A DNA stretch of 32,000 nucleotides from contig NZ_CP021983.2 of the NCBI RefSeq assembly GCF_002075285.3, positions 2,910,001-2,942,000 on the forward strand, read 5' to 3'. Both the position numbers and the translations under genes were made by a program. The DNA is from Halomicronema hongdechloris C2206 (lineage in GTDB: Bacteria; Cyanobacteriota; Cyanobacteriia; Phormidesmidales; Phormidesmidaceae). Positions within the stretch are counted from its first letter, which is position 1. Each line of letters opens with the position of its first letter. The notes below the pieces were generated by a model. It ran no database searches. It saw only the letters and a program-made list of their open reading frames with translations, and had not been told where the DNA came from. Of this stretch, positions 2,634-14,867 are shown in pieces.

Positions 2634-3284
2634 TCACTCAAACCTTGCACTATCAATCTTGTCGATGTTGTAGGTCTTGGAGCTGTCGTTGATGCTGCTG
2701 CCCTGGATGTCTTGGTAAACCTTGTTGCCGTCGCCGGTGACCGTTGCCGTGGGGCCAGGTCGCGCCTCTGAACCAGCCGTTTCATCCACCGTTGGACTCA
2801 GGTGGATGAACCCGTTAGCGGCCAGCTTCTCTAGCTGATTGCCGAAATGCTCCCGCAGCCCCTCGATGGTGTGATATTCCGTCTTGTAGTGCTGCAGCTC
2901 TTTCAAGGTGTCTTCGAAGGCCCAGAGGCTTTGCAGCTCTTCTCGATTCGTGGTGGTGGGCGGCGTCTTGAAGTAGGTGAAGATAAAGGGCTTCTGGGTG
3001 GCTGAGAACTGACCGAAGGCCTGACGGAACTCCTCTGCCGTGTACTTGCCCACCTTGTTGTAGGCCAGCAGCACGAAGAGGTCGCAGCTGCGGATGGCCC
3101 GGTTATATTCGCTCTGCAGGCCCCCAGGGGCCATGGCGTCTAGGAAGTCTTCCCAGATGTCGAGGTGCAAGAAGATGCCGCGATCGAACCAGGCTTTGCA
3201 CCTGCGATAGATGAAGATCTCAAACTGTTCTCGGTCTGCTTTCAGCTCCGATGAGGAGGCCAAGAATAGGGTGATTTTTTGCAT
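2634..3284 (-). CDS. TIR-like / DUF4062-like (flavodoxin-fold STIR-type) domain protein with low-complexity C-terminal linker
   Basis: MQKITLFLASSSELKADREQFEIFIYRR...GIFLHLDIWEDFLDAMAPGGLQSEYNRAIRSCDLFVLLAYNKVGKYTAEEF...KPFIFTYFK. This is the beta-alpha-beta pattern (hydrophobic strand + SS/T, acidic helix, 'CD-hydrophobic4' strand) of TIR-like N-terminal modules fused to TPR/STAND proteins in cyanobacteria. The assignment is by motif memory, not by search. Confidence 0.6.
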   Translation of the reverse strand: MQKITLFLASSSELKADREQFEIFIYRRCKAWFDRGIFLHLDIWEDFLDAMAPGGLQSEYNRAIRSCDLFVLLAYNKVGKYTAEEFRQAFGQFSATQKPFIFTYFKTPPTTTNREELQSLWAFEDTLKELQHYKTEYHTIEGLREHFGNQLEKLAANGFIHLSPTVDETAGSEARPGPTATVTGDGNKVYQDIQGSSINDSSKTYNIDKIDSARFE

Positions 3285-3374: not shown

Positions 3375-3599
3375 CCCGGAGCGTAGGTCACTCACGGGCA
3401 CGATATGACAATTTGCAGCGGCGGAAACGATCTGCGCTCCGGGCTCTGAGAGATCAAGTCTTCGGAACGGTGAAGTTGTGCGTCGGCAGAGCACCTTGAA
3501 TAGCAATCAATCACCTTTGTGCCGTCTACACCAACACAGTGTTAGACCTTTCCGCCGTCACTAACTATGATTTGTAGAGACAACTCTAGGAATTGAGGC

Positions 3600-4790
3600 A
3601 TGGATGATCAGGCGCTATCAGCGCTTCTTAGGGATCTTGAATCTGATAGGGTAGAGCGCAAAGCCTCAAATTCAGATGGGAAGAAAATAAGGCAAGCAAT
3701 TTGCGCTTTTGCCAACGACCTGCCGAACCATAAACAACCAGGCGTTCTGTTCATAGGAGTCAATGACGACGGCACCTGCGCTAATCTGCGTATCACAGAT
3801 GACCTTTTACTAAATCTATCCAGCATACGTTCTGAGGGAAAAATTCTCCCCTTTCCTGTCTTGCAGGTAAATAAGCGAGTGATTGATGATTGTGAGATGG
3901 CTGTGATTATCGTAGAGCCCTCAGATGCTCCTCCAGTTAGATTTGATGGGCGTACCTACATACGAGTTGGCCCTAGACGTGCAATAGCTACACCTGAAGA
4001 GGAACGCCGACTAAACGAGAAAAGACGTGCAAGAGACTTACCGTTTGATTTACGCCCTTTTGTTTCTGCCACTATCAAGGATCTAAACTTAGAGGGATTC
4101 CAGCGTGAGTACTTAGCATCCGCACTTGCACCCGATGTGTTAGAGGAAAATCAAAGATCTATAGAGCAAAAGCTTATCTCCCTAAGATTTATGACACCAG
4201 AGCCAAGTGCTTATCCGACCAGCTTAGGGATCTTGGTTGCAGGAAAAGATCCACGACAATTTGTGCCAGGGTTTTATATACAGTTTGTTCGCTTTGATGG
4301 TGTGGACTTGACTGCCCCTATTCGGGATCAGAAGGATATCAGCGGTAGCCTGATGGACCTGTTACGTTACATGGATGAAGTATTACAAGCCAATATTTCA
4401 ACGGCCACTGACATCAAAACGCAGTCTGTTGAAATACAACAGCCAGATTATCCAATTACTGCCTTGCAGCAACTTGTACGTAATGCAGTCATGCATCGCT
4501 CCTATGAAGAAACACATGCTCCGGTGCGAGTCTATTGGTTTCAGGATCGAATAGAGATCCAAAGTCCAGGTGGTTTGTTTGGACAAGTAAATCGACGTAA
4601 TTTTGGTCAAGGTGTTACTGACTACCGTAATCCTCATTTAGCAGAAGCTATGAAGAATCTTGGCTATGTTCAGCGTTTTGGGATTGGCATACCCACAGCC
4701 CAGAAGGAACTGAAAAAGAATGGGAATCCACCCGCAGAATTTATTATTGAAGATTCATATATTTTGGTCATGGTTAGGAGGAAACAGTGA
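3600..4790 (+). CDS. AlbA_2 (Schlafen-like) N-terminal domain + HATPase_c_4-like C-terminal domain protein ('ATP-binding / putative DNA- or RNA-binding protein')
   Basis: The N-terminus LESDRVERKAS...IRQAICAFANDLPNHKQPGVLFIGVNDDGT is the 'E.ktlEfK...i.ktivAFANt.GG.l.iGV.d.G' AlbA_2 signature. The C-terminus has LVRNAVMHRSYEETHAPVRVYWFQDRIEIQSPGGL...YRNPHLAEAMKNLGYVQRFGIGI, the HATPase_c_4-type 'NA..HRdY......i.i....drieI.nPG' box. Sampled lines give lower GC (35-43%) than the flanks. Confidence 0.8.
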   Translation: MDDQALSALLRDLESDRVERKASNSDGKKIRQAICAFANDLPNHKQPGVLFIGVNDDGTCANLRITDDLLLNLSSIRSEGKILPFPVLQVNKRVIDDCEMAVIIVEPSDAPPVRFDGRTYIRVGPRRAIATPEEERRLNEKRRARDLPFDLRPFVSATIKDLNLEGFQREYLASALAPDVLEENQRSIEQKLISLRFMTPEPSAYPTSLGILVAGKDPRQFVPGFYIQFVRFDGVDLTAPIRDQKDISGSLMDLLRYMDEVLQANISTATDIKTQSVEIQQPDYPITALQQLVRNAVMHRSYEETHAPVRVYWFQDRIEIQSPGGLFGQVNRRNFGQGVTDYRNPHLAEAMKNLGYVQRFGIGIPTAQKELKKNGNPPAEFIIEDSYILVMVRRKQ

Positions 4791-5800
4791 GCGCGCCGAT
4801 CATTGCTTTCTTTAACAATAAAGGAGGTGTCGGAAAAACATCTCTTGTTTATCATTTAGCTTGGATGTATTTTGACTTAGGTCTTCGGGTTTTAGCCGCA
4901 GATTTAGATCCTCAGGCGAACTTAACATCGGCTTTTTTAGATGAGGACCGCCTAGAACAGGTTTGGGAAGAGGAACAGGGTTTTAACACTGTTTTTCGGT
5001 GTGTTAGGCCTTTGCTCAGGGGAATCGGTGATCTTGCAAATCCAGAATTAGAATCAATAGATGACGGATTAAATCTTTTGATTGGTGACTTGCAGCTTTC
5101 TGGATTTGAAGATGAGTTATCATCTCAATGGCCAGACTGTCTAGACGGAAAGGAAAGAGCATTCAGAGTAATCTCTGCCTTCTGGAGGCTCCTATCCAAG
5201 GCTTCGGCAAGCAGCAAGGCAGACATTGTTCTGATAGATCTTGGACCCAACTTGGGTGCCATTAACAGAGCCGCTCTGATATCTGCAGATTATGTCGTTG
5301 TTCCGCTTTCACCCGATCTATTCTCATTGCAAGGGCTGAAGAACCTAGGACCTACTTTGAGACGGTGGCGAGAGGAATGGAAGGAGCGGATTCCTAAAAA
5401 TCCTGCTCCAGACCTCATGTTACCTGCAGGAAATATGCAGCCTATTGGATATGTGATTCTGCAGCACGGAGTTCGATTCGATCGACCGGTGAAAGCTTTT
5501 CAGAGATGGGTAGAAAGAATTCCAAATGTCTATCACTCTGATGTTGTTTACACAGAAAATGATAATGTTATTGATTTATCAAAAGACTCCAGCCGTTTGG
5601 CACTAATTAAGCACTATCAGAGCCTCATGCCGATGGCTCAAGCCTCTCGCAAACCAATTTTTCACCTGAAACCTGCGGATGGAGCCATTGGCGCTCATGT
5701 GGCAGCGGTTCAGAATGTATATTGGGATTTTAGAGAGTTAGCTCAGAAAATAGCCATCCGTGTTGGGGTGGACATACCTAGTACCGAAAGGCAGAAGTGA
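4787..5800 (+). CDS. ParA/MinD-superfamily ATPase with extended C-terminal region (337 aa)
   Basis: It has the deviant Walker A FFNNKGGVGKTSLVYHLA, then AADLDPQANLT and IVLIDLGPNL (Walker B-like). Its GTG start at 4787 overlaps the upstream TGA (GTGA), and AGGAGG at 4775-4780 lies 6 nt upstream. Confidence 0.85.
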   Translation: MSAPIIAFFNNKGGVGKTSLVYHLAWMYFDLGLRVLAADLDPQANLTSAFLDEDRLEQVWEEEQGFNTVFRCVRPLLRGIGDLANPELESIDDGLNLLIGDLQLSGFEDELSSQWPDCLDGKERAFRVISAFWRLLSKASASSKADIVLIDLGPNLGAINRAALISADYVVVPLSPDLFSLQGLKNLGPTLRRWREEWKERIPKNPAPDLMLPAGNMQPIGYVILQHGVRFDRPVKAFQRWVERIPNVYHSDVVYTENDNVIDLSKDSSRLALIKHYQSLMPMAQASRKPIFHLKPADGAIGAHVAAVQNVYWDFRELAQKIAIRVGVDIPSTERQK

Positions 5801-9539: not shown

Positions 9540-9640
9540 CAATCTGTCATCGCATCCCTGATTCAGCGGTTGCCATCGGATGTCGAGGCCATCGCCCGAT
9601 AGGCTCCTTTATGGACATAACGTGCACCATTGAGCGCATC

Positions 9641-9856
9641 CTAAATCCAACCGTTGAATGGCATGTCAAGGCGAGTGCGAGGCATGTCAGAGGGATGACA
9701 TAGCTTGTCAGGGCGATTGCCTTGCGATCGCATCTGAAATTCTTCTAGGGGATAGCGCTGCTTGGCAGTGAAGTACTCCTTCACCACCAGGGAAGGGGAG
9801 TAGCAGATATCTCGCGAACCATCGGGCCATTCAATTTGGAAGCGGATTTCAGGCAT
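9641..9856 (-). CDS. MSMEG_0570-family (Nit1C-cluster, nitrogen-starvation associated) small protein; C-terminal third looks aberrant
   Basis: The N-terminus MPEIRFQIEWPDGSRDICYSPSLVVKEYF matches my memory of that family's conserved start (MPE..F.irWPDG....CYSPS.Vv..yf). The tail ...GNRPDKLCHPSDMPRTRLDMPFNGWI does not look like the family. Confidence 0.5.
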   Translation of the reverse strand: MPEIRFQIEWPDGSRDICYSPSLVVKEYFTAKQRYPLEEFQMRSQGNRPDKLCHPSDMPRTRLDMPFNGWI

Positions 9857-9938
9857 CAGCGGGGGCGCAGGTAGATGGATGGGAAAAATTTTAAAATTTG
9901 AACTATGAACTGTGACCTATGAACTGCCAATTTCCCAT

Positions 9939-10223
9939 TCATGTAGACTCCATCAGCAGCTCGTGGTAGTGCTGGACATGCTGCCGGGCAGAGCAGCACC
10001 AACTGTAGTCTACCAGGGCCGCCTGACTACGACTGATGACGCCGATACGATCGCCGTTAACTTTCTGGAGCATGGCTTTGGCGATGGTAGATGGATCGCT
10101 AGGATCGACCCAGAAGGCCTGGTCCCGGTCGAGGAATTCGGTGAAGAGAGCCTAGTCGGAGACGATGACGGGGCGTCCAGATGCGATCGCTTCTAATACC
10201 ACCATACCCCAGCCCTCGGTTAG
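9939..10223 (-). pseudogene. Group-1 glycosyltransferase C-terminal fragment with in-frame TAG
   Basis: My translation is LTEGWGMVVLEAIASGRPVIVSD*ALFTEFLDRDQAFWVDPSDPSTIAKAMLQKVNGDRIGVISRSQAALVDYSWCCSARQHVQHYHELLMEST*. This has the GT1 'EG.G.v.lEA.a.G.PVi.sd' motif. The stop is at 10152-10154 and the N-terminal ~250 aa are absent. Confidence 0.65.
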
Positions 10224-10229
10224 GGTACG

Positions 10230-10396
10230 CTGCCGGGAAACCGGGGTGTTAGAGGAAGGTGCCAGATCGCCCGTTGACGCTTGACGCTTTAGCCATAAGT
10301 CAATCGTGTTACGGCTGATTTGGAAGGCAGTACTGGCCTCACTCTTCGTCATCCCATTGAGTTCAATGGCGTCAATGACCTTCTGGCGTAAGTCTA
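10230..10396 (-). mobile_element. IS630-family transposase N-terminal HTH fragment
   Basis: YSLDLRQKVIDAIELNGMTKSEASTAFQISRNTIDLWLKRQASTGDLAP has the typical IS630/Tc1-type N-terminus (YSLDLRqkV......G.s...a...f.vs..tv..W.kr....G.l.p). No DDE domain follows. Confidence 0.6.
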
Positions 10397-10561
10397 GGCT
10401 GTAGGGCTTCGGCTCTCTTTGGGGTGGCGCTTGTCATGGAACAGAATGTACCGACGGATCCACTGCACATAGGTTTGCTCGGTGCGGTAGGAGTAGTGCT
10501 TCAGACGAATGGTGTCGCGAACTTGATCAAGCAGCTTCTTAGGACGAGATTCCGGGTGCAT
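10394..10561 (-). pseudogene. Integron-integrase-type tyrosine recombinase, N-terminal SAM-like fragment only
   Basis: MHPESRPKKLLDQVRDTIRLKHYSYRTEQTYVQWIRRYILFHDKRHPKE compares with IntI1 [38 protein letters not shown]. It breaks off after ~50 aa into the IS630 stub. Confidence 0.6.
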
Positions 10562-10643
10562 AGGGCCGAATACCAATAGAGATGGTAAACAAACCTTAAA
10601 CACTCAAGGCGGCAAAGCGGAGGGTTGATTATACTGAATCTTT

Positions 10644-10760
10644 CAGCCTAATCACCCATATAGGGCGGTTAGGCTGACGTATTTCCACCCATACACCCAA
10701 ATAGGGCATATGGGCTGATGTATTTCCACCTAATCACCCATATAGGGGAGTTATGCAGAA
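10644..10760 (+). repeat. Three hairpin-type ~41-bp repeats (possible attI-region recombinase-binding repeats)
   Basis: The units are cagCCTAATCACCCATATAGGGCGGTTAGGctg, then acgtatttccac-CCCATACACCCAAATAGGGCATATGGG-ctg, then atgtatttccac-CTAATCACCCATATAGGGGAGTTATGC. The first unit closes on GTTAGGC (10668-10674). Confidence 0.6.
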
Positions 10761-11021
10761 TAGTTCTCTCTAATAACGAGTTAGCCTGCTGAGATATTGG
10801 TTGGACGTAGAAAAAGCTGATCCCCGGATTGCAATATCCCAAAAACACGTGCCCTTGGTTGGGTTGCCATGCTTGGTCAGTATTGGTTCTTGATTAAGAC
10901 GTGTTTTGAACGTTGTCAATAGGGTATGCCCAAGGTTAGATTTGTTCTAGCTCGTAGAATAAAGGGTGTTATCTACTGCATTTGGGCTGATAGGTAGTGC
11001 TATATAACTTTATAGAGAAAC

Positions 11022-11528
11022 ATGGAAATCATTCCGAAATTTGAAATTGGCACCTTTAAAGGCAAGGTCGCTGGATATAACGAATACAGATTTATCTGTC
11101 GATTATTTATTCCTCCCAATCGAGATGAGGCAACAGTAGTATGGCTTCGTGAAAAAGAAGCTTTAGTACTCAGCACCAGTTTCGAGAAGCCATACTCCAA
11201 GATTATTTTTGCCACAAATAACGACAAGATTATAAGAAGCATTCATCATAAGTATGGAATATCTAAGGTAGATTTAAAGCTTTTGTACACAGAGATTGAT
11301 GCTTTCGATGAAAAGTCGGAAGACGATTTCGAAGAGTTTTATTCTTCAACGGAATATCAAGCTTATGATGATGAATACTATCAAGATACCCAGAGGGAAA
11401 TCCTTGATTATATGACGGATTACTCTAATGCCATGGTTGCATCTTCTGAAAATGGCTGGTTTTATGATGAGACGATCCATTCAAAAAATGAAGCCTTAAA
11501 GTTGGCATTAGAAGAAGATCTTTACTGA
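11022..11528 (+). CDS. Hypothetical protein, 168 aa, acidic Tyr/Asp/Glu-rich C-terminal half
   Basis: This is a clean ORF in a 37-38% GC block (23/60 and 22/60 G+C in two sampled lines). The C-terminal part is DAFDEKSEDDFEEFYSSTEYQAYDDEYYQDTQREILDYMTDY. I recognise no domain. Confidence 0.65.
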   Translation: MEIIPKFEIGTFKGKVAGYNEYRFICRLFIPPNRDEATVVWLREKEALVLSTSFEKPYSKIIFATNNDKIIRSIHHKYGISKVDLKLLYTEIDAFDEKSEDDFEEFYSSTEYQAYDDEYYQDTQREILDYMTDYSNAMVASSENGWFYDETIHSKNEALKLALEEDLY

Positions 11529-11596
11529 TTTAAAGTTCCTAAAGACGACATCAGACAAGTAAATAATCTTGCATATAAACGAGGAAAAATAAATTT

Positions 11597-11890
11597 ATGA
11601 GCGATAAATTATATAATGTCAATAAACTTTCTGCTGAGGAAATTCCTTTTCATAATTACTTTGAGTTGTTGGCATCTGAGTTTGGCCATAAGTATGAGAT
11701 TTGGGTGCGAAATGAGGACTTTGGCCGATTTGTAGCAGTTGGTGTTGTGAACCGAAGCTCAGGAATAGCTGCGACTATTTACTTAAAGCGTGGCGGTGTT
11801 GTGATATCTAATCCATTAAACCAAGAAACAATTGTGAAGATAAGAAGTCATTTGAATTCAGGCGCTAAGGAAGACTTGTGCATTAATTAA
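11597..11890 (+). CDS. Hypothetical protein, 97 aa
   Basis: ATG is preceded by GAGGA 14 nt upstream. It lies on the same strand, 68 nt after the previous stop. I recognise no domain. Confidence 0.6.
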   Translation: MSDKLYNVNKLSAEEIPFHNYFELLASEFGHKYEIWVRNEDFGRFVAVGVVNRSSGIAATIYLKRGGVVISNPLNQETIVKIRSHLNSGAKEDLCIN

Positions 11891-11992
11891 ACACTATATC
11901 TATTGCAGGTATAATTTAAAGGATTTGCAAGGAAATTTTAGCCAGAAATATTAGTGATATTAGAGCTAATTTACATAAAGGATTATTTAGAG

Positions 11993-12511
11993 ATGAGTGA
12001 TATTCCAGTTCAGCTACTTCAGCATCTTGGCAAGCATGGTGTGCGCATGAGGCAATTCCTAAGCGATGATTTCAGCAATATAGATGATTCTCAACGTCGA
12101 GAAATGGCTACAGAAGCTCGCCAAATTACGGCTTGGGCAGCGGCGGCTATCGCACCTATGCCTATACCATTCGCCGATATCTGGACGATTACACCAGTGC
12201 AGATGCTTATGGTTCGGGCTATCGGTAATATTTATGGATACAAAATTGATAGTAAAACAGTTAAAGAGATGCTTGCGGTTATTGGCGGCGGAATGCTTGG
12301 TCAACAAATATGTCTTGCGCTGTTCAAAATTGGCTTACCCGGTGCTGGGGGTTTTGGAGGTGCTGCATTCGTATTTTTCTGGACACATGGTATTGGCAAA
12401 GCAGCAGAACTTTACTTTCAGAGCGGCATGACTGCGACTGCAGAGGAACTTGCGGCAGCACGCAAGGAGGGAATGGAACAAGCAAAAAATGAAACACCGC
12501 GCACTGAGTAA
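11993..12511 (+). CDS. DUF697-like membrane-associated protein (172 aa from ATG 11993)
   Basis: AAAAIAPMPIPFADIWTITPVQMLMVRAIGNIYGYKID...LALFKIGLPGAGGFGGAAFVFFWTHGIGKAAELYF is the DUF697 pattern (PiP.aD...ltpiQ..Mv..Ia.iYG; glycine-rich hydrophobic hairpin; T.aiG). AAGGA lies 13 nt upstream of the ATG. Confidence 0.65.
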   Translation: MSDIPVQLLQHLGKHGVRMRQFLSDDFSNIDDSQRREMATEARQITAWAAAAIAPMPIPFADIWTITPVQMLMVRAIGNIYGYKIDSKTVKEMLAVIGGGMLGQQICLALFKIGLPGAGGFGGAAFVFFWTHGIGKAAELYFQSGMTATAEELAAARKEGMEQAKNETPRTE

Positions 12512-12535
12512 CCAATGGCATAAGGTCGCGGCGCA

Positions 12536-12618
12536 AGCTAACACGTCGTTGGAGCCGAACGGCGAGAGGTTATCAGTCTATATTATGATGCTATCTGCGT
12601 CGGCTCAACTATGACGTT
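12536..12618 (+). other. attC-like recombination site, 3' end (AGGT, 13695-13698) separated by the IS insertion
   Basis: AGCTAAC (R''-like) ... imperfect inverted arms with bulged bases ... GTT|AGGT (R' GTTRRRY once the IS and one TSD copy are removed). The reconstructed length is 87 nt. It begins 25 nt after the DUF697-like stop codon. Confidence 0.55.
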
Positions 12619-12630
12619 GGCACTGTCCTG

Positions 12631-13296
12631 TTAAAGAGTGAGAGACTCAAATCCCCTGGCTAATAGGATTTCAGAGAGCTTCAAGGGGCGCTGAATAAAT
12701 CCCATGGCCATGGCTGGTGTTCTGGCTTTGCCCAAACTCCCATGAGGCCGCACCCAATTGTGAATCAAACGCTGTACATCCAAAGCTCGCTGTAATCCCT
12801 CCACCTGCTTGGCATAGTGATTCTGTCGCCTGCGATAGGCCGTTGCCCGTCGCCTCAAAGCACTGTTGAAGGCTTCGAGGTGATTGGCATGAACCTCGCT
12901 GAGGGCACTGAGGGCCGTCCAAGGATGCTCAACGTTGAGCCACTCTACCCTAGGTTTACCTTGAGAGCCTTTGATCTTGATGGCCACCTCTAGACCCTCC
13001 CGCCACACCTTGCGATAGGGATAGGCGTCGCTGCTGAGGTGGCTCGGCAGATAAACGCTGGCCAGTTTCCACAATGCCTTGCCGTAGCGCCGCTCTCCAT
13101 CGGTAAACCAGCGAATCCATGCACTGGGCTCTGCCCACTGCCAAGCCCGCTGAACTCCCTGTTCAAATAACTCAGCCGCCTTGAGGCCCGCGCTGGCTTC
13201 TAGCCAGTAGCGACTCTTGCGTTCAATGAAGCTAATGGTCCAGCCCTCAGAGGCTGCGGGGGGGAAGGTTTTCACCGACACGGGTGTAGAGTTCAT
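12631..13296 (-). CDS. insB: IS1-family InsB (DDE) ORF, presumably expressed as an InsAB' fusion by -1 frameshift
   Basis: GWTISFIERKSRYWLEA...WFTDGERRYGKAL...HANHLEAFNSALRRR is present. It overlaps insA by 50 nt in the -1 frame. The overlap contains GAAAACCTTCCCCCCC (A4 and C7 runs, ~13257-13275). Confidence 0.8.
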   Translation of the reverse strand: MNSTPVSVKTFPPAASEGWTISFIERKSRYWLEASAGLKAAELFEQGVQRAWQWAEPSAWIRWFTDGERRYGKALWKLASVYLPSHLSSDAYPYRKVWREGLEVAIKIKGSQGKPRVEWLNVEHPWTALSALSEVHANHLEAFNSALRRRATAYRRRQNHYAKQVEGLQRALDVQRLIHNWVRPHGSLGKARTPAMAMGFIQRPLKLSEILLARGFESLTL

Positions 13297-13627
13297 CGCC
13301 TTCTATGGTGACATCTCCGCCTGCCCCGGCAGGCGGGGACCAGGCGGGCAGATGAGAGGATGAACGCTCTTCCCAGGTCGTAATACTGCTAGGTGATGTC
13401 CCCACGACTCTGGCGGCGGCTCTGACGCCCAGCCCTTCGTGTCGAGCATTGAGGGCCATCTCGACGGTGGCTACTGGGGCGCGTAGACGGGCCATGGGGG
13501 TGCCGCTGCGTTCATTGAAGCGACGACCGCAGGTGTTACAGAGATATTGCTGGAGCACTTGACCCGTTTTGAGGGTTTTGGTGCCATTCTTGACGATGGC
13601 TTCACTCTGACAATGGATACAAGGCAT
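13247..13627 (-). CDS. insA: IS1-family InsA (zinc-finger/HTH) ORF
   Basis: MPCIHCQSEAIVKNGTKTLKTGQVLQQYLCNTCGRRFNERSGTP is a CxxC...CxxC zinc finger, followed by an HTH. Confidence 0.8.
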   Translation of the reverse strand: MPCIHCQSEAIVKNGTKTLKTGQVLQQYLCNTCGRRFNERSGTPMARLRAPVATVEMALNARHEGLGVRAAARVVGTSPSSITTWEERSSSHLPAWSPPAGAGGDVTIEGDELYTRVGENLPPRSL

Positions 13628-13850
13628 TGGACCGAAAGGCTTGCTGTATCTAAAGTCTAGCTCTCACTCCATAATCTGACAGTGCCATGACGTTAGGTTG
13701 TTTACCCTTTGGTTGTGGGGCATTCGTCCGCTTATCTGTTGGTGTTTAAGAGGCATTCGGAGAAAGGCTAGATAGTCAAGGTGTAATACCAAGTCTCTAA
13801 AGCAAAGTTATAAATAGAGGAGTTGAAACATGTTTACACCTCTGGGTGGG

Positions 13851-14867
13851 TCAATGGTTGAGTAACGCTGCGATCGCATCTCGGATAAAGGCTTCGTCTT
13901 CCGGGTTTTGATAGGGATTTCCGGCTCGATGGCCCCAGATGGAGGGAATCGGGCGATAGGTGGCCTTGGCAATCTGTTCGGCTTCGGCGGCGCAATCGTC
14001 CGGCGTGAAGTACAGGTCGGTGGTGGCGGGCATCACCAGCGTGTGGGCCTGAATGGTACTCAATGCGTTGGCGGTGTCGCCCTGAAAAACCGGCGTATTC
14101 CCCACATCGCAGCGGAGCCAGGTGTCAATCATGGCGATCAGGTTGTGGGGATCGCGGCGGCGATAATTGGCTTCCCAGCCCCGCAACAGATAATCCTCTA
14201 ACGAGTCATAGCCGCACTGCCGGTAGGGCTTTTCCCGATAGTAAGCCTGGGAGGCGGCCCAACTGGCATAAATGCGGGCGTAGGCCCGATAGCCGCGATC
14301 GGGGATGCCTTCAAAGCGATGCCCGTTCCAGGCGGGATCGGCGGTGAGGGCCGATCGCAGACTCCCCAGAAAAACTTTGGTGTGGTCAGTGGTCTTGGCC
14401 GTGCCACAAATCGCCGCAATTCGCTCCACCCGATCGGCATAGTGTGTCCCCCAGTAATAGGCCTGCTGCGCCCCCATCGACCAGCCGTACACCAGCGCCA
14501 GCCGCTCGACGCCGAAGACCTGCCGCAGCAGCTGTTCCTGAGCCCGGAGGTTGTCGTAGTGGGTGAACCAGACGCCATCTTCGGCCAGGCCACAACGGTC
14601 ATCATTGCTGGGAGAGGTGGACAGTCCATTGCCGAACTGGTTGGCGATGACGATGAAATAGCGCCTGGGATCGAGGATGCGATCGCAGCCAATCAGCCAG
14701 TCGATATCGGGATGCTGGGCCCCGTAGGAGGTGGGATAGAGAATCACATTGCTGCGATCGCTGGCCAGCTCTCCATAGGTCTGATACACCAGCGTCGCCT
14801 CCGGCAGCGTCACGCCACACTGGAGGTCAAACTGGTGGAGCGTGAACGCAGGCGCCGCATCGGTCAT
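13851..14867 (-). CDS. Alpha/beta hydrolase of the homoserine O-acetyltransferase (MetX-like) family
   Basis: NVILYPTSYGAQH..., the nucleophile elbow VYGWSMGAQQAY (GxSxG), and the C-terminal IPSIWGHRAG are present. Length is 338 aa. Confidence 0.8.
   Translation of the reverse strand: MTDAAPAFTLHQFDLQCGVTLPEATLVYQTYGELASDRSNVILYPTSYGAQHPDIDWLIGCDRILDPRRYFIVIANQFGNGLSTSPSNDDRCGLAEDGVWFTHYDNLRAQEQLLRQVFGVERLALVYGWSMGAQQAYYWGTHYADRVERIAAICGTAKTTDHTKVFLGSLRSALTADPAWNGHRFEGIPDRGYRAYARIYASWAASQAYYREKPYRQCGYDSLEDYLLRGWEANYRRRDPHNLIAMIDTWLRCDVGNTPVFQGDTANALSTIQAHTLVMPATTDLYFTPDDCAAEAEQIAKATYRPIPSIWGHRAGNPYQNPEDEAFIRDAIAALLNH

Follow-up and report, generated by a model that had tools for sequence, protein, structure and literature searches.

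An 87-nt imperfect palindrome in the genome of the chlorophyll-f cyanobacterium Halomicronema hongdechloris C2206 is split by an insertion sequence (IS), which raises two questions: whether the palindrome is an attC recombination site of an integron, and what the insertion did to it. The window analyzed here is a 32,000-nt stretch of contig NZ_CP021983.2 (positions 2,910,001 to 2,942,000), in which the IS occupies positions 12619-13686. A first-pass annotation, made from the sequence alone, had read the palindrome as an attC-like site inactivated by a recent and precise insertion of an IS1-family element. Our analysis indicates that the palindrome is very probably a bona fide attC closing one three-open reading frame (ORF) cassette of a degraded chromosomal integron, which was later hit by an IS1-family element.

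Removal of the IS and of one copy of its 8-bp target-site duplication, ATGACGTT, regains the palindrome AGCTAACACGTCGTTGGAGCCGAACGGC...GCGTCGGCTCAACTATGACGTTAGGT, and all coordinates and sequences of the first-pass annotation, including the IS boundaries and its repeats, the duplication and the 87-nt restored site, were correct. The left and main part of the site (12536-12618, + strand), which was located by its sequence, by a geometry scan and by the class-1 attC model R1 described below, consists of the R'' box AGCTAAC (12536-12542; one mismatch to RYYYAAC), a 5-nt spacer ACGTC (12543-12547), the L'' box GTTGGAGCCGA (12548-12558) with a bulged G at 12552, a variable centre (12559-12599), the L' box TCGGCTCAAC (12600-12609), a 6-nt spacer TATGAC (12610-12615) and the GTT of the R' box (12616-12618), all on the + strand. 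AGGT, the distal four bases of R', has been moved away by the IS to 13695-13698 (+ strand); the insertion is precise, falls inside R' and splits GTT from AGGT. As scored with a box-architecture scanner, the restored R' (GTTAGGT) is a perfect match to GTTRRRY and pairs with R'' at six of seven positions, all nine positions of L'' and L' are paired, a single base bulges out on the L'' side, and the spacers measure 5 and 6 nt. A scanner comparison found the same geometry, bulge position included, in the attCs of aadA1, aadA2, aac(6')-29a and aac(6')-Ib. This geometry fits only the orientation of the upstream ORF, with the opposite orientation performing worse (7/9 L pairs), and R'' begins 24 nt after the stop (12511) of the co-oriented third cassette ORF. 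Across both strands of 1.7 Mb of other cyanobacterial sequence, the same geometry with 9/9 L pairs occurs at only three sites, one of which adjoins an integron-integrase pseudogene.

The palindrome might instead be a generic cyanobacterial repeat, either like a repetitive extragenic palindrome (REP) or the end of a miniature inverted-repeat transposable element (MITE), or it might be a terminator between the convergent DUF697 and hydrolase genes, the match to the attC boxes being a coincidence. Its location between convergent genes, 24 nt past a stop codon, speaks for such an explanation, as does the fact that any palindrome ending TAAC...GTTA automatically fits R boxes of low information content. 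The modest folding z-score counts in its favor as well. Folded as single-stranded DNA, the restored sequence adopts the ~20-bp stem with bulged, extrahelical bases that the first-pass annotation had described, and its energy is -14.4 kcal/mol (z = -2.5) for the top strand and -12.8 kcal/mol (z = -2.4 versus shuffles) for the bottom strand. The significance of the attC derives from its box architecture and not from its folding energy. Against a terminator, no T-run follows the stem and a terminator scan finds nothing, and the combination of 5/6-nt spacer asymmetry and bulge position matches attCs only in the upstream-ORF orientation.

Covariance models also bear on this choice. The first, R1, was derived from nine class-1 attCs alone, taken from plasmid arrays (aadA1, aadA2, aadB, aac(6')-29a, blaVIM-2, arr-3, aac(6')-Ib, dfrA5 and dfrA14), and was run against a set of 0.95 Mb made up of the window and 99 cyanobacterial loci. 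Scoring with an attC covariance model was a check that the first-pass annotation had proposed; with R1, the site at 12536-12622, which includes the IS-altered R', scored 33.5 bits with an E value of 4.7e-5 (3.7e-6 with filters off). It is among only four matches with E < 1e-4 in the 0.95 Mb, the next best having an E value of 0.039. The second model, R2, was derived from nine cyanobacterial sites and gives the window site 69.7 bits, yet the site belongs to the R2 training set. When R2 was applied to 163 kb of plasmid DNA, 11 of its 12 matches were the extracted class-1 attCs and the twelfth was a further site of the L090 cassette array, with no match outside cassette arrays in this DNA. The class-1 and cyanobacterial models therefore each recognize the other group's sites. 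When plasmids were searched by BLAST with the 87-nt site, no meaningful match came up, as attCs lack the length and the conservation that this method needs. The alignment of the nine cyanobacterial sites, the members of which were partly picked by a structure-aware scan, keeps the predicted pairing in 82% of cells versus 28-38% when the partner is slid, and compensatory changes occur in nine of 18 pairs, with a covariation score reached by 0 of 500 shuffles.

An unfiltered search with R2 turns up just two sites in the window, and the palindrome is therefore not a dispersed REP-like repeat. The second site is a partly decayed attC of the same family at 3464-3547 (- strand), GTCTAACACTGTGTTGGTGTAGACGG...CCGACGCACAACTTCACCGTTCC, which scores 36.6 bits with R2 (E 4e-6, outside the training set) and is not significant with R1 (9.7 bits). 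Its R' box, GTTCCGA, is non-canonical and two of its L pairs are broken, and both of its ends are nearly identical to those of the first Nodosilinea site discussed below. The two attCs are 9 kb apart and on opposite strands, and the second is upstream of an ORF at 2634-3284. Overall, the 0.95 Mb, drawn from about 100 genomes, contain some ten sites, which group in arrays and next to stubs of the integron-integrase gene intI. Rfam and tRNA scans of the window gave no matches. The first-pass annotation had named genome-wide recurrence as a REP or terminator element as the outcome that would speak against an attC; the window holds two copies only and the terminator scan is empty. Given the few, clustered copies, the missing T-run and attC models that cross-recognize each other's sites, the terminator or REP reading was rejected, and we consider it highly improbable.

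Several observations nevertheless weigh against the palindrome being an attC that closes an integron cassette. R1 was built from nine attCs, is biased to the aadA type and was calibrated in shortened form, and several members of the R2 family were chosen by a scanner of our own making and are not significant with R1. Folding energy alone only modestly beats shuffles (z about -2.5), and R'' departs from RYYYAAC at one position. The bulged base of L'' is G on the top strand and C on the bottom strand, whereas the bulged base of the best-studied attCs is most often G on the bottom strand; within the cyanobacterial attC family this position varies between G, C and A. In addition, the spacers can partly pair (GTC/GAC) and are not fully open, one attC after three ORFs is unusual for a cassette, and the integrase of the locus is a stub. 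Despite these points, the identification of the site as an attC was borne out by models in both directions, by the compensatory changes and by the integron context.

That context begins about 1.9 kb upstream of the attC with a divergent intI pseudogene stub (10394-10603, - strand), of which IntI residues ~9-54 are left at 10418-10555. The stub matches NCBIfam NF011946 'integron integrase' (2.9e-13), TIGR02249 (2.8e-11) and Pfam PF13495 (1.1e-13), and a tblastn search with IntI1 aligns 46 aa of it (residues 9-54) with 56.5% identity (E 1e-11). The same tblastn search found no other intI fragment, and hence no intact intI, in the window. A complete integron is defined by an intact IntI with the IntI-specific insertion and the catalytic RHRY residues, and with residues ~9-54 only, the locus is a degraded integron and not a complete one. 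The 120 closest database relatives of the stub are all N-terminal fragments of 45-121 aa from filamentous cyanobacteria with differing truncation points, and no full-length close relative is among these 120 listed relatives; integrase decay seems to be very common in this clade. Abutting the stub are further fragments (9930-10390, - strand), consisting of an IS630/IS481-like helix-turn-helix (~10215-10390) and the C-terminus of a family-1 glycosyltransferase (~9930-10214). As a separate observation, the region 9641-10214 (- strand) holds an MSMEG_0570-family 'nitrogen starvation response' gene together with the C-terminal MSMEG_0565-type glycosyltransferase fragment, within the inserted island described below and next to a glutamine-synthetase gene.

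On the other side of the stub lies an attI-like region (10604-10786, + strand) with two direct repeats of TAATCACCCATATAGGG, two of TGAYGTATTTCCACC and a putative crossover box GTTAGCC (10780-10786). Outward from the start of the stub, this region is 84% identical over 225 nt to the region beside the intI stub of Shackletoniella antarctica (L081), and the match breaks off precisely at GAGTTAG (window 10778-10784). Such an endpoint is the behaviour that would be expected of an attI with a crossover, G|TT, at 10780-10782. With the crossover placed there, a single cassette of 1.84 kb with three co-oriented ORFs on the + strand extends from 10781 to the G at 12616. ORF 1 (168 aa, 11022-11528) and ORF 2 (97 aa, 11597-11890) have no family match, and ORF 3 (11954-12511) encodes a DUF697/YcjF-like membrane protein (Pfam PF05128, 1.8e-9) with a likely start at ATG 11993 that gives 172 aa. 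The cassette is AT-rich and foreign to its surroundings: its GC content is 33-41% versus 55-63% in the flanks, and that of ORF 1 is locally 33-36% versus 55% for the window. Homologues of the 172-aa ORF 3 product at 90-94% identity occur in other genomic contexts. The DUF697 protein (11954-12511) also matches PDC-S29, a candidate defence family of PADLOC, though weakly (1.1e-6). Since a promoter scan gave no more matches than in shuffles, no Pc promoter is proposed. The order intI'-attI-cassette-attC is the canonical layout of an integron.

The surrounding DNA is cyanobacterial in character, with 54.8% GC and 22 HIP1 octamers in the window, and the published H. hongdechloris genome has a GC content of 54.6% (PMC6416890). 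The closest available relatives are Halomicronema metagenome-assembled genomes (MAGs; ~83% aa identity), in which the genes for the desaturase, the alpha/beta-hydrolase and glutamine synthetase are neighbours and the gap between the latter two is ~300 nt. DNA similarity to these MAGs stops at 13861 and resumes at 9545, and the region 9546-13850, which is missing from them, is therefore an inserted island. Near the second attC, at 3600-5800 (+ strand), a protein with Schlafen/AlbA_2 and HATPase_c_4 domains that resembles the N-terminal parts of proteins associated with prokaryotic Argonautes (pAgo) in PADLOC is followed by a ParA-like ATPase, and this pair is possibly a defence or plasmid-derived module.

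Does an uninterrupted form of the site exist elsewhere? Among 80 loci anchored on the hydrolase gene, no orthologous empty site was found, the island there being absent or different. Thus, the search for an IS-free site in related genomes, which the first-pass annotation had suggested, yielded no ortholog but did yield uninterrupted homologous sites, which are present in Nodosilinea, Shackletoniella and Microcystis. A DUF697 cassette on a Microcystis aeruginosa contig has at its end an uninterrupted site of 86 nt, the R'' and L'' of which are identical to those in the window and which scores 31.6 bits with R1 and 47.4 bits with R2, both out of sample; it is the nearest to an empty site among the sequences compared. 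On an M. aeruginosa contig (L130, ~488-574), a DUF697 homologue is interrupted by an insert of ~88 nt that resembles a small MITE and has the inverted ends GCTAAACGGC...GCCGTTTAGC. Nodosilinea sp. E11 retains more of intI, in the form of a pseudogene that covers IntI1 residues 1-200, and three divergently oriented cassettes come after it, every one closed by an attC of this family. A close relative of H. hongdechloris (L006, 1386-5264) carries a three-cassette array directly downstream of the orthologous hydrolase gene, again with a family attC end on each cassette. One cassette encodes a methyltransferase, another a LysR regulator together with two small ORFs, and the remaining one a small pair of genes. 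With the hydrolase gene as reference, their attCs are oriented oppositely to the attC of the window. Finally, the DUF697 gene occurs in another genomic context in two metagenome contigs, L128 and L129 (93% and 87% nt identity, respectively). Downstream of DUF697 in both contigs (L128 ~590-612 and L129 ~755-777), what is left of the attC reads AGCTAAC-TACGAC-GTTAGCC, which would result from loss of the entire L''-loop-L' hairpin between the two AAC triplets.

What kind of element entered the site? The IS is 1068 bp long, lies on the - strand and has the ends GGCACTG...CAGTGCC, with imperfect terminal inverted repeats at 12619-12644 and 13661-13686 (26 nt; 27 nt at 81% complementarity as given by the detection tool). 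The left copy of the 8-bp duplication ATGACGTT (12611-12618) is made up of five spacer bases and the GTT of R', and the right copy (13687-13694) is identical to it. ORF1 of the IS (126 aa, 13247-13627, - strand) contains a CxxC...CxxC zinc finger, a helix-turn-helix and the first catalytic D (GDELYT), matches NCBIfam NF033558 (IS1 family, 1.9e-12) and NF050000 (IS1/IS1595 Zn domain, 5e-9), and is likewise called as a 126-aa ORF in ten other copies of the IS. ORF2 (221 aa, 12631-13296, - strand) lies in the +1 frame relative to ORF1, contains the second D (FTDGERRYG), the E motif (NHLEAFNSALRRR) and an IS1-like N-x2-E-x2-N-x3-R motif, and has hundreds of homologues (214/221 aa). The ORFs are joined at a probable recoding site, a C7 run (CTT CCC CCC C on the coding strand; 13258-13264, - strand). 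With one C less in this run, ORF1 and ORF2 are fused into a 331-aa product that is 100% identical to WP_088430104.1, named 'IS1 family transposase' of Halomicronema hongdechloris. The C7 run and the two-ORF layout are kept in copies of 75-93% identity (L095, L096, L100, L102 and L105-L107), and the single-ORF copy of L094 has C6. The view that the frameshift is a disabling mutation was rejected, since the same layout and C7 run recur in many diverged copies. The frame shift is probably programmed, through either +1 recoding or transcriptional slippage.

The assignment of the element to the IS1 family by the first-pass annotation agrees with the NCBIfam IS1 and IS1/IS1595 zinc-domain matches and with the homologues, which NCBI names 'IS1 family transposase'. 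The zinc-domain score is above the NF050000 cut-off, and the NF033558 match reaches 54 bits over model positions 1-167 of 199 against a curated cut-off of 100. The Pfam scan of the window gave no DDE_Tnp_IS1 match to the IS proteins, and copies at 75-93% aa identity occur in metagenomes. Judged by these matches, the element is probably a distant member of the IS1 family, although its size, its GGCnnTG ends and its 8-bp duplication would equally fit the ISPna2 group of the IS1595 family.

The insertion lies directly 3' of the GTT triplet where integrases exchange strands, so that R''-L''-L'-spacer-GTT stays contiguous. AGGT alone was replaced, by the IS end GGCA, and the new R' box, GTTGGCA, forms five Watson-Crick pairs and one G-T pair with R'' and has two mismatches to GTTRRRY. 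These features would also be compatible with a true attC that is still recombination-competent, with the IS a passenger outside the crossover and the cassette excisable by an integrase acting in trans. The contiguity of the site up to GTT, the residual pairing of the new R' and the score of 33.5 bits that the interrupted site retains with R1 argue for such competence, and each recombination event normally brings in new distal R' bases in any case. The two mismatches of GTTGGCA to GTTRRRY argue against it, as do the lack of an intact intI in the window and the truncation of all of the closest intI relatives found. On balance, a still-competent site appears somewhat unlikely. We favor instead an attC in which the insertion may have weakened recombination: since the IS lies just outside the crossover point and only four distal R' bases changed, the site would be weakened rather than physically destroyed. 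The claim of the first-pass annotation that the site is inactivated is therefore an inference: the change in R' is limited to AGGT becoming GGCA, and R'' to GTT is contiguous and still recognized by R1. Because the integrase was already gone, the site had probably become inert in cis by the time the IS arrived. The cassette is most likely now frozen mainly for want of a nearby integrase, a stronger reason than the IS. As to the claim that the insertion is recent, the perfect duplication, the intact ends and the conserved two-ORF layout make this plausible.

The observed anatomy, attC family membership, integrase stub, and IS with its duplication are best accounted for by the following sequence of events. 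A chromosomal integron was inserted between the alpha/beta-hydrolase and glutamine-synthetase genes of H. hongdechloris, and its divergent intI was cut to a stub of about 50 codons by other mobile-element debris. In its intact state, the bottom strand of the attC would have folded into an R/L-box hairpin and been recombined by IntI at the AAC/GTT triplet. The IS1-family element, with its two ORFs joined at C7, later transposed into the attC and duplicated ATGACGTT (the 3' spacer and the GTT of R'), which may have weakened the site.

Whether the element reached the attC by chance is a separate question, and the comparison that addresses it rests on five insertions with verified duplications. 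A related IS with 83% nt identity (L094, 3881-5037; GCA_000332095.2, KI913949.1) sits in an attC-like site, where the duplicated 8 bp, CGCGGTTG, span the spacer and reach one base into the outer box, which places this insertion 2 nt from the corresponding position in the window. This parallel hints at a target preference but is far from proof. Another copy (L117, ~215-1345), with the verified 8-bp duplication TGAGTCGC, lies at the loop/3'-arm junction of a terminator-like hairpin composed of CTGCGACT, 11 nt and AGTCGCAG followed by TTTTTT, and attC-like sites lie within 1-2 kb of the IS copies in L095 and L105. In contrast, the L116 and L119 copies, also with verified duplications, are in unremarkable target sequence, and most of the metagenome copies have flanks that are unrelated or chimeric, the same right flank being joined to different left flanks. 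The orientation of the IS relative to the attC is opposite in the window and in L094, and the L094 site has no R1 match even with filters off and E values up to 10, its support coming only from R2, in whose training set it is included. Preferential survival of insertions at neutral sites, cassette arrays among them, could yield the same pattern. We consider it unlikely that something other than chance guided the landing, with this IS1-family subgroup preferring the junction between spacer and R box in attC hairpins, or junctions of hairpins generally. We judge it marginally less likely again that a cyanobacterial subgroup of the family favors the attC spacer/R-box junction or the unpaired junctions of long hairpins. 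If such a preference were true, the elements would form a third, mechanistically distinct attC-seeking class after IS1111-attC elements and group IIC-attC introns, and an attC-seeking IS could add to the widespread decay of integrons in filamentous cyanobacteria.

H. hongdechloris thus carries a decayed chromosomal integron, and the paper that describes its genome makes no mention of integrons (PMC6416890). The sites compared here define an attC family of ~86 nt common to Halomicronema, Nodosilinea, Shackletoniella, other Leptolyngbya-like cyanobacteria and Microcystis, and the locus provides a concrete case of erosion, with truncation of the integrase by mobile-element debris, an IS in the attC and collapse of the hairpin in a sister copy. 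The find leaves the known mechanism of integrons unchanged. It is a well-supported further case, in a little-studied host, of an already familiar type of element.

Integrons, clusters of attC sites lacking integrases (CALINs) and intI pseudogenes have been documented in Cyanobacteria and elsewhere, and roughly one in four complete integrons contains IS elements (PMC4889954, PMC2426708). By default, the IntegronFinder survey clusters attCs within 4 kb (PMC4889954), and the two attCs of the window, 9 kb apart, would therefore stay separate. That survey sought intI pseudogenes with C-terminal and PF00589 profiles (PMC4889954), which a 50-residue N-terminal stub would thus leave unmatched, and it drops single attC sites without an integrase (PMC4889954). 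An IS-split attC beside an N-terminal stub would likely be missed under these rules and, if so, integron remnants in cyanobacteria are undercounted. Like sedentary chromosomal integrons and CALINs, the locus is chromosomal and has non-resistance cassettes, attCs similar within the lineage, a decayed integrase and an IS nearby. It differs from typical examples in having one attC by the stub and the second 9 kb off on the other strand.

The closest comparison for the site itself is with the attCs (59-base elements) of class 1 integrons, such as those of aadA1, aadA2, aadB, aac(6')-29a and blaVIM-2, which have the same box order, spacers and bulge. The 87-nt length of the window site and its start 24 nt past the stop of a co-oriented ORF are also as in class 1 attCs, and its L'' GTTGGAGCCGA and L' TCGGCTCAAC resemble the aadA-type GTTCAAGCCGA and CGGCTTAAC. 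Unlike class 1 attCs, it has a filamentous cyanobacterial host, a three-ORF cassette, a top-strand G bulge, partly pairing spacers and an R' split by an IS.

Mobile elements inside attCs have precedents in the IS1111-attC group of IS and the group IIC-attC introns, which are known for targeting attCs (PMC11187229, PMC3001079). An example of the known attC-targeting introns is present in a class-1 integron that we used as a control (Raoultella plasmid pWLK-NDM; L092, ~4198-5547), where the yjjG cassette is separated from the remnant of an aadA-type attC by the reverse transcriptase gene of a group II intron. Mechanistically unrelated to the IS studied here, the IS1111-attC elements and group IIC-attC introns use a DEDD transposase with a guide RNA, or retrohoming, generate no 8-bp duplication and have a fixed position and orientation, whereas the element in the window is a DDE transposon of the IS1 family with an 8-bp duplication and a target preference that is only hinted at. 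Members of the IS1 family have ends of the form GGnnnTG, target duplications of 8-9 bp and a transposase made from two overlapping ORFs (ISfinder). The window element resembles IS1 proper and the ISMhu11 group in its N-terminal zinc finger and helix-turn-helix, DDE domain with an InsB-like motif, ends, 8-bp duplication and two ORFs. It is longer than IS1 (1068 bp versus 768 bp) and, unlike IS1, which uses a -1 frameshift at A6C, has its ORF2 in the +1 frame at a C7 run.

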